This document shows, in pieces, positions 3,646 through 11,312 of a DNA stretch of 64,000 bases (position 1 is the stretch's first letter; the number at the start of each line of letters is the position of its first letter). Below the pieces are notes generated by a model, which made no database searches, was not told where the DNA came from, and worked only from the letters and a program-made list of their open reading frames with translations. The position numbers and the translations under genes were made by a program. Source of the DNA: a virus; IMG/VR virus record IMGVR_UViG_2889849113_000003, positions 3,716-67,715 of that record. One strand, written 5' to 3'.

Positions 3646-3992
3646 CCGGCCGTAGTCTGCTCTGTGGCCAAAGGTGAGGACTTTTGTGCATCGCCGTCGC
3701 CGTCCTGCGCCAGCCCCAGAAGCCGCCCGGCGCGCTCGACGGCCTCGGCCTCGCTGCCATCCGACATCCCGCCGCCGGTGAGGGCGAGGTACTTGCCGGC
3801 CAGTGAGTGCAACGCAAGCAGCGCGCTGCGTAGCTCGTTGAGCTCGCGGTTCTGCGCCTCGGCATCGGCCAAGACTTCGCTGGCCAGCAATTCCTCGCGC
3901 TCCAGGGCTTCAAGGCGGTCTGCGGCAGCGCGCAGCTGCTGAGGAAGCGTCGCGTCAGCCACGGGGAACCCCCTCCAGTCCGAGATCCGCAA
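3618..3992 (-). CDS. Hypothetical coiled-coil protein
   Basis: Helical heptad-like content; start uncertain. Confidence 0.5.
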   Translation of the reverse strand: MRISDWRGFPVADATLPQQLRAAADRLEALEREELLASEVLADAEAQNRELNELRSALLALHSLAGKYLALTGGGMSDGSEAEAVERAGRLLGLAQDGDGDAQKSSPLATEQTTAGCEEAAPAP

Positions 3993-7135: not shown

Positions 7136-7387
7136 TCAGTCCTTCTTGAGCCGCATCCAGCCGGCCTTGCGGTCGAACACGATCACCTCGCGCTTGCGCA
7201 GCGCCTGGAGCCGGCGGTCGATGATTCGCCACTCCGGCGGCTTGAACCGCCCCGGCGCCGCCTGGCAGATCGGCTTGGCCAGCGCCAACAAGTCCTTCAT
7301 ACCGTCGAGGACCATCATCGTGTTGCGCCCGGCGTCGATGTGCGCCAGCAGCGCGGCGTCGAACGCGGTGTAGTCCGGCGCGCTCAA
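7136..7387 (-). CDS. Hypothetical protein, possible wHTH
   Basis: RIIDRRLQALRKREVIVF. Confidence 0.55.
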   Translation of the reverse strand: MSAPDYTAFDAALLAHIDAGRNTMMVLDGMKDLLALAKPICQAAPGRFKPPEWRIIDRRLQALRKREVIVFDRKAGWMRLKKD

Positions 7388-7635
7388 AGCGACGCCTCCG
7401 GCCCGGCCGCCTGCACCAGCCGCGTGAAGTCGGCCACCGTGCGGCACTTCTCGCAGTCGTCGTCGGCGAGCTCGATGCCGACCTCATCCTCCAGCGCCAT
7501 GACCAGTTCGACCAGGTCGAGGCTATCGTGCTTGTGCAGTTCGGTGTCCTGGCTCACGGTGGCGGGCGCGAGGCCCAGGACTTCTGCAGTGATGCGCTCG
7601 ACGCGCTGCTCGGTGGATTCGGTGGTGGTGTTCAT
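7384..7635 (-). CDS. Acyl carrier protein-like protein
   Basis: DSLDLVELVMALEDEVGIEL...TVAD; acidic 83 aa; phosphopantetheine Ser retained. Confidence 0.85.
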   Translation of the reverse strand: MNTTTESTEQRVERITAEVLGLAPATVSQDTELHKHDSLDLVELVMALEDEVGIELADDDCEKCRTVADFTRLVQAAGPEASL

Positions 7636-7824: not shown

Positions 7825-8205
7825 TCAGTGGTGCTCCGTGATCGGCCGCAACTCCTGCAGCGTCTCCACCGCCACGAAGCGCACCAGGCGCTGCGGCTCG
7901 CTCACCGTGTCCGCAATGACCTGCATGACGGCAGCCATCTTCGGCATGGTTTCCTGGGACGCCTTGTTGTCCACCATGCACGCGGGCAGCACACCCATCG
8001 GCGTACCGATGCTGCGGATGCCGACCTTGTCGTGGCTTTCGTCCTTGCCGATCCAGGCAAGCATGGCCACGGGCGGCTCGGCCGATTCGTCAAGCGCCTG
8101 GCGCGCGATCTCCTTCATGGCCAGGGCGAGGGCGTGCGGGCCTATGTGGGCGTCCAGGCTCAGTGCCAGGATGCGCCGAAGGGCGTCTTCGTGGGTAGTG
8201 CTCAA
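7825..8205 (-). CDS. Hypothetical protein
   Basis: 126-aa coupled ORF. Confidence 0.55.
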   Translation of the reverse strand: MSTTHEDALRRILALSLDAHIGPHALALAMKEIARQALDESAEPPVAMLAWIGKDESHDKVGIRSIGTPMGVLPACMVDNKASQETMPKMAAVMQVIADTVSEPQRLVRFVAVETLQELRPITEHH

Positions 8206-8417
8206 GGGGTGCTTCCTTCTTTCGTGCGCCCGGCCTTGGCCGGCTGGCGCTGCTGTGCCGGCGCTGCGGCTTTGGCGTGCTCGCGGGCGATCTGCTCGAC
8301 AGCCTCGGTCGGCATGTCAAGCGACGCGGCTGCGCTGGCCAGCGCTTCGGGCGTCTTGCCCAGGTACTGCTGGGCAGTGGCCAAGACCTTGGCGACGTAG
8401 GTGGTCGGATACGTCAT
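8202..8417 (-). CDS. Small hypothetical protein
   Basis: ATGA-coupled ORF. Confidence 0.5.
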   Translation of the reverse strand: MTYPTTYVAKVLATAQQYLGKTPEALASAAASLDMPTEAVEQIAREHAKAAAPAQQRQPAKAGRTKEGSTP

Positions 8418-8872
8418 GCAGCGGCCCTCGGCCCCTCGCTTGCCTGCCGCACCGTGTCTGCGATCTTTTGCGCCGGCTCGAAGTCGATCACCAGGCCGAG
8501 TGCCGCGCACTGGTTGCGCCAGTAGTTGACCTTGGCCTGCATCTCGGCGGCCAACTGACGCGTCATGAACTCGTTGTCCAGTACGGCATCGAGGGCGCGG
8601 TAGCCACCACCCTCCTGTTTGCGGTCACTCGGAATGGACACGAATGCCTGCACGGCAACGGCCGGCTGATTCGGGACTTCAATCCGAACTGAGCGGATCA
8701 GCCTGCGCGCCTGCTCCAGTCGCCATTGGTGCGCGGCAGTCGTGTTGTCCCACTGGAAATGCTCGTGCAGCGGGTGCGCCTTGTCCGCAGCCTGCTTCAC
8801 CACGTCCTCGGGCCGCAGCAGGCCGTCGTGCTCTGCTGCGATCCGCTCCAACTCACTCTTGATCGTGTCCAT
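8414..8872 (-). CDS. 152-aa protein directly downstream of the pentamer array, putative accessory factor
   Basis: GGAG RBS; LRPEDVV..A....HPLHEHFQWDNTTAAHQWRLEQARRLIRSV. Confidence 0.8.
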   Translation of the reverse strand: MDTIKSELERIAAEHDGLLRPEDVVKQAADKAHPLHEHFQWDNTTAAHQWRLEQARRLIRSVRIEVPNQPAVAVQAFVSIPSDRKQEGGGYRALDAVLDNEFMTRQLAAEMQAKVNYWRNQCAALGLVIDFEPAQKIADTVRQASEGPRAAA

Positions 8873-8886
8873 CTTCAACTCCTGTT

Positions 8887-9405
8887 GTTCCGTGCCTGCT
8901 GAGCCAAGCCAAACCCCTCCAGGCCATTCCTTTCCATGCCTGCCAGTCCGCGCCGCGCCCCGCCTTGCCGTGCCCCGCCTTGCCTGCCTCACGACGCCCG
9001 ACTTCGCCCAGCCGGGCCATTCCTAGCCTGCTGAGCAAAGCCCCACCACGCCTTACTGCGCCCGGCCGGTCCATGCCTGCCCTACCTCGCCAGTCCACGC
9101 TGTTCCTCGCCGCGCCTAGCCTGCTATGCCAAGCGTCACCCCGCCTTGTGAAGCCTTTCCGCTCCACGCCGCGCCACACCGGCCTCACCTCGCCTTGCCC
9201 GGCAATGCCAAACATCGCCATGCCTGGCCTCACGTCGCCCAGCCCAGCCACGCCAGCTGCGCCGTACCTATCCCAGCGCCGCCTTGCCTTACCTGCCTTG
9301 CCGAGACGAACCGGTCCTGGCCTTGCCTTGCCAAGCCTCGCCTTGCCATGCCTGCCGCACCGCGCCTCGCCAATCCAAAACTCGCCATGCCATGCCTTGC
9401 CTGCT
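8887..9405 (-). repeat. GGH-NN pentamer tandem array, putative guide-RNA locus
   Basis: Hand-parsed: 95 pentamers plus 11 tetramers = 519 bp; 82/95 begin GG; position 3 never G; positions 4-5 variable. Confidence 0.9.
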
Positions 9406-9408
9406 GCG

Positions 9409-10071
9409 TCAGGCAATACCGAATTGCGCTCTCACCGATGCGTCTTGGTCCGTGCCAATCACCTCGAAAGTGCCCCAGCCGCACCCCGCACTGCTTTTGC
9501 TGTCCGGGCGCCCAGCACCGATGCCGACCTGAAGCCCAACCCGCGACATCAGGTTTATTACGTCAGCCGCCTTGAACTGGCTCTGGTCGAACTTGATGCG
9601 CAGCTTTGCCGCCCAGGACTGGTACTGAGGGCGGGCGCGCACATCAACCACGCCGGTGGCGTTGCGGGTGTGCGCGGAGAAGGTCCGGCTCTCGCCGTAG
9701 ATGCGGATCAGCGGCAGGCCGTCGATGCGGTCGAAACCATCCGCCTCGATAAAGCAGCTCAACTTGGCCAAAGTCATTTTGAAGCCGACCAGCCGGCACG
9801 CGGAAATCATTCCGGCACGGAACGCGGCAGCATTCATGCCCTCCCAGCCATCGAACGAGCGATAGCGAGCTTCCTCTGCTTCGCGCTCGTAGTCGCGCGC
9901 CTCTCTGACCTTTTTGGATTTCGCAACTGAACCTTCGGCCATGCGGCTCATGAGTTCGGCCTTTTTCGAGAAGCGCTCTATGACCAGCGGCGCTGTGCCG
10001 CGGATCAGAAGTTCCAGAACACCGAAGTTCGGTGCGCTGATGACGACGTTTTCTTGCTTGGTAGTGCTCAT
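9409..10071 (-). CDS. Stand-alone Cas7/RAMP-like protein, 220 aa
   Basis: First strand LELLIRGTAPLVI; RPQYQSWAAKLRIKFD; C-terminal Gly-rich loop VGIGAGRP...GCGWGTFEV. Confidence 0.75.
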   Translation of the reverse strand: MSTTKQENVVISAPNFGVLELLIRGTAPLVIERFSKKAELMSRMAEGSVAKSKKVREARDYEREAEEARYRSFDGWEGMNAAAFRAGMISACRLVGFKMTLAKLSCFIEADGFDRIDGLPLIRIYGESRTFSAHTRNATGVVDVRARPQYQSWAAKLRIKFDQSQFKAADVINLMSRVGLQVGIGAGRPDSKSSAGCGWGTFEVIGTDQDASVRAQFGIA

Positions 10072-11006
10072 GCCGGAGTTCCTGCTTCCTCGGTAATGGG
10101 TGAAGTGACGTTGCTGGTCTGCGGCTCGCCGCCGAGCGCATCCAGCAGCTCCGGGATCAGCCGGCTCAACTCGCCCGTTGCGATGGCCGCGTCGGCGTCG
10201 AAAGACTCGTCCTCGTCCACCACGTTGCGGCCTTCGAGGGCGGTGTCCAGGAACTGGAGCTTCTTCAGCAGCAGCGCGTCGGTCAGAACGAAGGCCACGC
10301 GCTCGTTCCAGCTCAGCGCCAGCCGCGTGGGCCGCTTGCCCGCTGCGATGTGCTGCTTCACCTCGTCGGTGTCGAGCGCGTGCTTGGCGTACCGCACGGT
10401 GGCCTTCGTCTCGTCCGCGGCCCGTACCTCGCACTCGCGGTCCAGGTAGAACCCGGCGGGCGCCTCGCCCTCGGCAAGCCACGCCGCCATGCAGCCCGCA
10501 GCCGACTGCTGCGTGACGATGGGCTTCACCGCGAAGCAATCCAGCGCCTTGACCAGCATGCTCACCACGGCGTCTGCCTGCTTGGCGCTGGCGTCGATGG
10601 CCAGGAGCCCGGCGCGCGGGTCGATCCAGACCTGGGTGCGGCTGCGCTTCGTGAACGCCATGGGCAGCAGTTCGTGCGTGGCCTGCTCGACCAGTTCCTT
10701 GCACTCCTTCTTGCCCGGCTTGTAGCCGCGCTCCTGCTCGATGGCTGCAGCGATGGCCTCGACGCGGTCCTTGACGACGGATGCCGGCAGCAGCCGCTTC
10801 TCGGCCATCAGCGCCAGCAGCCAGTGGCCGCCGACGACTTCGAGCAGCGGCGCGTGCGGCGTGCCTCGCGGCGGCACCCAGCCGGTGCTCAGAGGCTGCG
10901 TCGGCGCGCAGGGCGTGAAGGGCTCGCGGGCGAGGGCGGATTCGGTGGCTGCGGCGTCGGGCTGCCAAGTGGGCGCGATGCGCAGTAGCGTAAGGGTCTT
11001 GAACAT
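10068..11006 (-). CDS. rdgC: Recombination-associated protein RdgC
   Basis: MFKTL..FTPC.P....GWVPP, EKRLLPASVV, PTRLALSWNERVAFVLTD...KKLQF motifs; 312 aa. Confidence 0.92.
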   Translation of the reverse strand: MFKTLTLLRIAPTWQPDAAATESALAREPFTPCAPTQPLSTGWVPPRGTPHAPLLEVVGGHWLLALMAEKRLLPASVVKDRVEAIAAAIEQERGYKPGKKECKELVEQATHELLPMAFTKRSRTQVWIDPRAGLLAIDASAKQADAVVSMLVKALDCFAVKPIVTQQSAAGCMAAWLAEGEAPAGFYLDRECEVRAADETKATVRYAKHALDTDEVKQHIAAGKRPTRLALSWNERVAFVLTDALLLKKLQFLDTALEGRNVVDEDESFDADAAIATGELSRLIPELLDALGGEPQTSNVTSPITEEAGTPA

Positions 11007-11012
11007 GGTGCG

Positions 11013-11312
11013 TCAGCCCTCGGCCCCGTCATACGGGTGCGCCACCAAATACGCCCGCCCACCCGCGTTCTCCAGGTGCAGCGCGTGCGTCTCGATGTTG
11101 AAGCCGTTCTTGACGGCGAGCCGGATGTTCTTGATCCGCACCCGCTCGCCGACTTGGCTGCAGCGGCCTTCGAGCAGGTCCGTCATGAGCGCCATGCCGA
11201 CGACCTTGGCGGCGTCGGACTTCTTCTTGGCCCACTCATGAGCTTCAAGGTGGCCCATCCACATCCAGAGGTCGGAGAGGTGTTCGGGGTCGGTGATTTC
11301 GATTTTGAGCAT
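11013..11312 (-). CDS. Hypothetical protein
   Basis: 99-aa ORF in operon. Confidence 0.55.
   Translation of the reverse strand: MLKIEITDPEHLSDLWMWMGHLEAHEWAKKKSDAAKVVGMALMTDLLEGRCSQVGERVRIKNIRLAVKNGFNIETHALHLENAGGRAYLVAHPYDGAEG

Follow-up and report, generated by a model that had tools for sequence, protein, structure and literature searches.

[quoted passage not shown] They have been described in a series of 2026 preprints, the first of which appeared in April (bioRxiv 10.64898/2026.04.26.720920). According to that preprint, a VIPR system pairs a single RAMP protein, Vipr, with an accessory vap gene and with vrRNAs of 9-16 YNNGG repeats, in which GGY is conserved and NN is hypervariable (10.64898/2026.04.26.720920). 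VIPR types are numbered I-VII, and the published vap genes are vap1-6. The vrRNAs co-purify with Vipr, and the DNA targets follow a one-base-skip (xNN) rule, demonstrated for type II VIPR systems, in which the skipped base falls mostly on codon wobble positions (10.64898/2026.04.26.720920). Natural targets are rival satellites and prophages, and there is no self-targeting (10.64898/2026.04.26.720920). For the systems of Escherichia phage SUSP1 and of a Pseudomonas fulva prophage, RNP formation, xNN targeting of dsDNA and transcriptional silencing of rivals have been shown experimentally (10.64898/2026.04.26.720920; 10.64898/2026.04.26.720927; 10.64898/2026.10.15.759431). Cryo-EM places one protomer on each repeat, with G1 and G2 held by a G-loop and thumb and a Y3 pocket that excludes purines (10.64898/2026.04.26.720927). 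A biology preprint of October 2026 deals with satellites and ‘solo’ vrRNAs and reports that satellite-encoded vrRNAs redirect Vipr to decoy sites (10.64898/2026.10.15.759431), and a language-model survey recovers VIPR arrays and reports non-canonical triplets (10.64898/2026.10.21.760802).

Besides the tailed guides of type II, the April preprint recognizes ‘staggered arrays with overlapping vrRNAs’ as one architecture (10.64898/2026.04.26.720920). In what that preprint gives with its fig. S18, the guides of staggered arrays overlap by 1 nt. Small-RNA sequencing confirmed the other two alternative architectures, with no such statement for the staggered one (10.64898/2026.04.26.720920). The staggered, tail-less array is the least characterised VIPR array type, having been inferred from sequence in the preprint, and the locus described here is a clean example of it.

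The locus lies in a window of 64,000 nt (positions 3,716 to 67,715 of IMG/VR record IMGVR_UViG_2889849113_000003), whose own genome is 7.8 Mb in size with 70% GC. Positions 8414-10071 of the minus strand are very probably a prophage VIPR system, comprising vipr, a vrRNA array and a vap-like gene, that would work by a four-step guide mechanism (Table 1). The array fills the whole gap between the 220-aa gene, whose stop codon is 3 nt away, and the ribosome-binding site of the 152-aa gene, all on the minus strand. A search of 8200-11300, the vipr-vap operon stretch, revealed no promoter-like or terminator-like site.

Table 1. Features of the proposed VIPR locus, in window coordinates
Feature	Position	Strand	Remarks
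vipr gene, 220 aa, P0001	9409..10071	-	lone RAMP-fold protein (modelled), presumed RNA-binding subunit
vrRNA array	8887..9405	-	ten putative guide units plus a 2-pentamer remnant; staggered (tail-less) architecture
junction 1, AGCA	9402..9405	-	3 nt past vipr stop; u1 = 9357-9401 (9 pentamers)
junction 2, GGCA	9353..9356	-	u2 = 9298-9352 (11 pentamers)
junction 3, GGCA	9294..9297	-	u3 = 9259-9293 (7 pentamers)
junction 4, AGCT, atypical	9255..9258	-	u4 = 9185-9254 (14 pentamers)
junction 5, GGCC, atypical	9181..9184	-	u5 = 9126-9180 (11 pentamers)
junction 6, AGCA	9122..9125	-	u6 = 9082-9121 (8 pentamers)
junction 7, GGCA	9078..9081	-	u7 = 9033-9077 (9 pentamers)
junction 8, AGCA	9029..9032	-	u8 = 8989-9028 (8 pentamers)
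junction 9, GGCA	8985..8988	-	u9 = 8945-8984 (8 pentamers)
junction 10, GGCA	8941..8944	-	u10 = 8901-8940 (8 pentamers)
junction 11, AGCA	8897..8900	-	followed by 2-pentamer remnant 8887-8896, then AGGAG ribosome-binding site of next gene
vap-like putative accessory gene, 152 aa, P0002	8414..8872	-	directly after array; probably co-transcribed with it

The minus strand of the tract was parsed by dynamic programming, with G, G and a pyrimidine rewarded at positions 1-3 and an equal penalty charged for 4-base and 6-base steps. This resolved 8887-9405 into 95 GGH-NN pentamers, 82 of which start with GG, and eleven tetramers (AGCA four times, GGCA five times, AGCT and GGCC once each) that separate runs of 9, 11, 7, 14, 11, 8, 9, 8, 8, 8 and 2 pentamers. 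Under this even-handed penalty no 6-base step was found in the window array. Position 3 is C in 65 pentamers, T in 16, A in 14 and G in none, the last having a chance probability of ~1e-18 given the 35% G of the window's own genome. All 16 dinucleotides occur at the NN positions, which have 42% GC against the 70% of the genome. An earlier first-pass annotation, made from the letters alone, had proposed this same parse with its counts, tetramers and run lengths, all of which were reproduced exactly, and the NN strings that it gave for u1, u2, u5, u8 and u10 are correct. The autocorrelation of the tract has maxima at lag 5 (0.53) and lag 44 (0.52), the latter being the length of 8 pentamers and one tetramer, and the peak moves to lags 5k-1 as the -1 steps accumulate. 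The tract has periods of 5 nt and of ~44-49 nt, both built from the same pentamers.

The gene on the upstream side of the array, with its 220 codons at 9412-10071, encodes P0001, which has no Pfam family but matches phrog_4652 (E 4e-17). Over 6000 homologues are found in public data, hardly any of them with a name. An AF2 model built from a 90-sequence alignment reached a pLDDT of 93.8, whereas folding of the single sequence gave a pLDDT of 40. The top PDB matches of the model are all CRISPR RAMPs, namely Csm3, Cmr4, Cmr6, Cas7-11 and the Cas7 proteins of types VII, IV and I-D, with Foldseek E values down to 1e-5 and VIA-align Z scores up to 10.4. In the AFDB, the best five clusters are A0A0F9A1L0 (TM 0.74), X1U2U4, A0A661D0E2, A0A2D6XG06 and A0A1F4YLN4. 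The same five accessions are the founding Viprs named in the methods of the first VIPR preprint (bioRxiv 10.64898/2026.04.26.720920). Because the top five AFDB matches are exactly these founding members, P0001 is a Vipr as judged by its predicted fold. Within the alignment of P0001 homologues, the G-loop residues G179, G187, R188, G196 and G200 are invariant. A tblastn search with P0001 (E <= 0.01) did not recover Escherichia phage SUSP1, so that kinship to the system of that phage is visible by fold alone.

Downstream of the array, P0002, with its 152 codons at 8417-8872, matches phrog_15946 (E 2e-23), and a homologue that is 47% identical occupies the same post-array position in a related phage contig (L022). 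P0002 falls in virus-only Atlas clusters and has weak winged-helix-like structural neighbours (TM ~0.4). The setting is viral, in that P0001 and P0002 both match PHROG families and relatives are found on IMG/VR contigs as well as on contigs that bear terminase and portal genes; rdgC is found directly upstream of P0001. At 7384-7635 on the minus strand, downstream of the VIPR operon and within the early region of the prophage, a small acyl-carrier-protein-like gene (PF00550, E 7e-10) was also noted.

Comparison with the published systems reveals both a shared plan and several departures from it. Like the window locus, where the accessory gene is a candidate, the type II systems of SUSP1 and the P. 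fulva prophage combine a lone RAMP protein and an accessory gene with GGY/NN guides of ~9-16 repeats in a phage or prophage. Type II guides, however, end in a conserved ~40-nt 3' tail with a pseudoknot, which is absent from the window array: its units lie 4 nt apart, and an Rfam search of 8000-10500 (E up to 10) returned no match, including no CRISPR repeat. The locus is therefore not to be filed under type II. The staggered arrays, as far as fig. S18 of the April preprint presents them, are likewise tail-less runs of GGY/NN pentamers beside vipr with guides overlapping by 1 nt. An overlap of 1 nt between two 5-nt registers amounts to a 4-base step, which is the phase break that the first-pass annotation had described. 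The window array has this staggered architecture, with eleven 4-nt steps and no spacer or tail. Its position 3 follows GGH (C > T > A, never G) in contrast to the strict GGY of published VIPR, and it accepts A in 15% of pentamers although the published Y3 pocket excludes purines (10.64898/2026.04.26.720927); across the clade, A makes up 13-27% of position 3 per column. The published G-loop contacts D177, W178 and R179 are also without an obvious counterpart in the P0001 loop, GCGWG.

The Cas7 backbone proteins of Class 1 CRISPR systems (Csm3, Cmr4, Cas7) have in common with Vipr a RAMP fold with G-loop and thumb, and both place one subunit on each fixed step of guide RNA, leaving periodic unpaired bases. 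The steps themselves differ, being 5 nt with 2 pairing bases in VIPR and 6 nt with 5 pairing bases in Cas7. CRISPR arrays alternate direct repeats of ~25-40 nt with spacers of similar size, whereas the window array has no repeat-spacer units.

Related arrays were compared across 19 Vipr-encoding loci, 14 from genome and viral collections and five from contigs whose Viprs are 79-90% identical to P0001. In all 19, a GGH-NN array runs on the same strand as vipr, and as a rule no more than ~10 nt separate its start from the stop codon; this co-occurrence of protein and array spans Proteobacteria-type, cyanophage and actinophage relatives. GGCA is read at 113 of the ~131 breaks in related arrays. 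Six-base steps are confined to two loosely parsed arrays (L002 and L018); random indels would yield steps of both signs, whereas the breaks are near-exclusively -1. The junction GGCA/GGC, with the slash closing the tetramer, is nearly invariant in a logo of the 113 unique junctions, where G, C and A of the tetramer stand at 100%, 100% and 93% and the following GG at 98%. Non-junction units in the same logo read G, G, not-G, N, N, with ~0.03 bits per NN position. The rarer tetramer forms have parallels as well, since GGCC and GGCT junctions occur in L020 and L021. Units most often contain 8-10 pentamers in 20 related arrays, compared with 7-14 in the window (one more with the junction pentamer included), which fits the roughly 9-16 repeats of published guides. 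Directly behind a junction, the first NN was observed to be biased to A/T (AA, AT and TA being commonest; ~0.3 bits per base over the 113 junctions), unlike non-junction NN, and so this dinucleotide may help to mark the boundary instead of being free guide sequence.

When the NN strings of units were compared between arrays, 36 pairs in 16 families outscored every shuffled pair, and 30 of the 36 align at offset 0, both members beginning with the same pentamer behind the tetramer. Related phages have entire units in common, have lost others and carry them in different orders: one family (A) stands sixth, sixth, seventh, fifth, eighth and fourth among the units of L009, L011, L012, L013, L014 and L016, respectively, and another (D) precedes it in L012 and L013 but follows it in L014. 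Since units are shared as whole cassettes that begin right after a tetramer, the tetramers delimit what are presumed to be guide units, and on comparison of the arrays they bound exchangeable, putative guide-unit cassettes. The suggestion of the first-pass annotation that tetramers mark unit boundaries is thereby borne out. No convincing unit is common to the window and the loci whose Vipr is 90% identical to P0001, the NN strings there being almost wholly different; the sole window unit with a weak relative elsewhere is u10, which agrees with the last unit of L020 at 13 of 18 NN bases. A second short GGH-NN array was also noticed upstream of vipr, or ~0.5 kb from the main array, in three loci (L007 9790-9921, L019 9776-9894 and L010 10669-10800), so that array number and placement vary within the clade.

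In the mechanism that we propose, the array would be transcribed together with the flanking vipr and vap-like gene. By the type II cryo-EM model, one Vipr protomer would then settle on each pentamer, gripping G1, G2 and the non-G base 3 and leaving NN free. A 4-base step breaks the 5-nt register between two GGC motifs, so that GGCA/GG would end one guide and start the next, giving ten guides of 7-14 repeats (8-15 with the shared junction pentamer GGCAG). The RNA may be cleaved at these steps; the unit boundaries themselves come from the array comparison. By analogy with type II VIPR, the filament of Vipr and guide would bind dsDNA, reading it as NN-x-NN-x, and silence it, and its targets would most likely be genes of rival phages or prophages.

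Target searches were carried out at several scales. In the window's own genome, with the array masked, the ten units were searched at skips of 0-3 against 40 shuffles of NN order per unit; no excess survived correction for 40 tests and no perfect match was found, the best matches carrying one mismatch and being given solely by units of 7-8 pentamers. This agrees with the reported absence of self-targeting (10.64898/2026.04.26.720920). When 116 units from 17 arrays were compared with 278 kb of related loci and the window, matches at skip 1 equalled those of shuffled units. With as many as 3 mismatches allowed, u2 had 0 matches in 301 family genomes, among which the genus is represented by three species-level genomes, against 1 for the reversed control. 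Exact scans of IMG/VR with u2, u5, both halves of u4 and two conserved units of relatives returned nothing, or one match that was read as chance. That lone match was rejected as a target, being intergenic on a small contig that resembles an RNA phage by our reading of a coat-protein-like ORF.

Exact matches did turn up for two units. Two matches to u2 were found in JGI metagenomes, and one agrees at 22 of 22 NN bases and lies in frame (MKEFKNHPSSK) in an unannotated 532-aa ORF of a marine contig with 44% GC (L026 2004-2032; JGI Ga0115568_10046958). The other unit is u1 with its junction AG, whose match of 20 of 20 bases lies in frame at codons 9-18 (KIIELFEAAR) of a 68-aa ORF. This ORFan belongs to a family of 3 members and comes from a viral contig with 47% GC (L028 6334-6362; IMG/VR UViG_3300020049_005056). 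By a rough composition-based estimate, ~0.1-0.5 such matches are expected by chance for each unit, and codon-like patterns tend to match in frame. At 44% and 47% GC, the two contigs are unlikely to meet a host of 70% GC. The exact matches of u1 and u2 are thus indistinguishable from chance, and as targets they are unproven. The databases searched sample the phages of this host poorly, and the absence of targets is therefore no refutation. The idea in the first-pass annotation that targets read as NN-x-NN-x leave the free base on codon wobble positions coincides with the published one-base-skip rule of type II VIPR, but its expectation of enriched gapped matches found no support at skips of 0-3 in the sequences searched.

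The lack of targets at these skips is also what might be expected if the tract were one long Vipr-bound scaffold, sponge or decoy RNA in which the tetramers are tolerated register slips and neither boundaries nor processing sites. No tail caps each guide, and satellite vrRNAs are reported to redirect Vipr to decoy sites (10.64898/2026.10.15.759431), both of which fit such an RNA. We nonetheless consider it quite improbable, because functionless slips should also go by +1 and should not give GGCA at 113 of ~131 breaks, because units travel between arrays as cassettes that begin right after the tetramer, and because the NN positions are maximally diverse, as is expected of bases that bear specificity. 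A role of the tract as DNA, whether through R-loops or two-tetrad G-quadruplexes on the G-rich non-template strand or as replication or packaging iterons, appears highly improbable. Its strong GC skew (G 241, C 114), its GG runs spaced 3 nt apart and the adjoining recombination genes, such as rdgC, would suit that role; yet G is excluded at position 3, the opposite of what selection for a G-quadruplex or R-loop would favour, and NN is hypervariable even between near-identical phages. Across phyla, moreover, the tract always lies beside a RAMP RNA-binding protein and on its strand, and in the published biochemistry such RNAs co-purify with Vipr (10.64898/2026.04.26.720920).

It is scarcely conceivable that the tract is a decaying slippage microsatellite or part of a protein-coding gene (a 187-aa ORF at 8853-9416). 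Open frames span it on both strands and TRF reports short period-5 and period-15 runs in it, but chance alone should give long ORFs at 70% GC and the arrays of relatives vary in length and content, with 4-nt steps that shift the frame. Decay, for its part, would not hold three positions fixed while two are near-random, nor would it give -1 steps alone. A real slippage repeat is at hand in the same genome: contig C174 carries, at ~43.86-44.12 kb (L004 1490-1760), a pure (AAGGC)n/(GCCTT)n tract of >50 copies with an assembly gap inside. It came up as the second own-genome match to the array and was set aside as an ordinary slippage microsatellite, unrelated to the VIPR array. The two have in common a period of 5 and a GGC core on one strand, but the C174 repeat is perfectly uniform whereas in the array a constant scaffold surrounds near-random NN and the -1 junctions are conserved; the distinction between array and microsatellite that had been drawn from the letters therefore holds. 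A TRAP-like ring-protein site, Rho or CsrA binding, primase sites and class-switch-like repeats were dropped as candidates in light of the RAMP neighbour and the VIPR preprints.

The guide-array reading, of which the first-pass annotation had most of the outline right, returns the locus to known ground. It is a further example of VIPR, and the system, its gapped code, the wobble argument and the staggered architecture have all been in print since April 2026, so that the locus by itself opens no new question. The remaining interest lies in the processing of staggered arrays, the junction consensus and the exchange of cassettes: the GGCA/GGC junction, the near-exclusive -1 steps and the reordering of cassettes offer hypotheses for how guides might be set apart and replaced in a system with neither tail nor adaptation machinery. 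In a bolder and rather unlikely version, the junction would be a register break that ends and seeds Vipr filaments, one transcript would carry ~10 independent filaments, junctions would serve as recombination points for guide swapping, and A at position 3 would reflect a distinct recognition pocket of this Vipr clade. If true, this would amount to spacer-like guide turnover between phages without Cas1/Cas2.

A Vipr homologue is also encoded by Cluster F mycobacteriophages (Cheoctovirus), with gp57 of phage Quico being 36% identical to P0001 (E 2e-18). An array of GGCNN pentamers, interrupted by GGCA, lies in the gp57-gp56 gap of Quico (NC_028751.1, ~37.3-37.6 kb; L001 2502-2742), and Brocalys, Florinda, Pippy, Donkeykong and others carry a Vipr homologue and an array as in Quico. 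These phages, which share the grammar described here and are well studied, would be a convenient laboratory system for staggered VIPR arrays. The gene that follows the Quico array, gp56, was considered as a counterpart of P0002 and is not homologous to it. The mycobacteriophage vipr loci are annotated as hypothetical or are unannotated, and in Brocalys an annotated ORF extends a few bases into the array. Vipr homologues were likewise seen in Gordonia phages and in Cyanophage Cy-LDV1 (52% identity).
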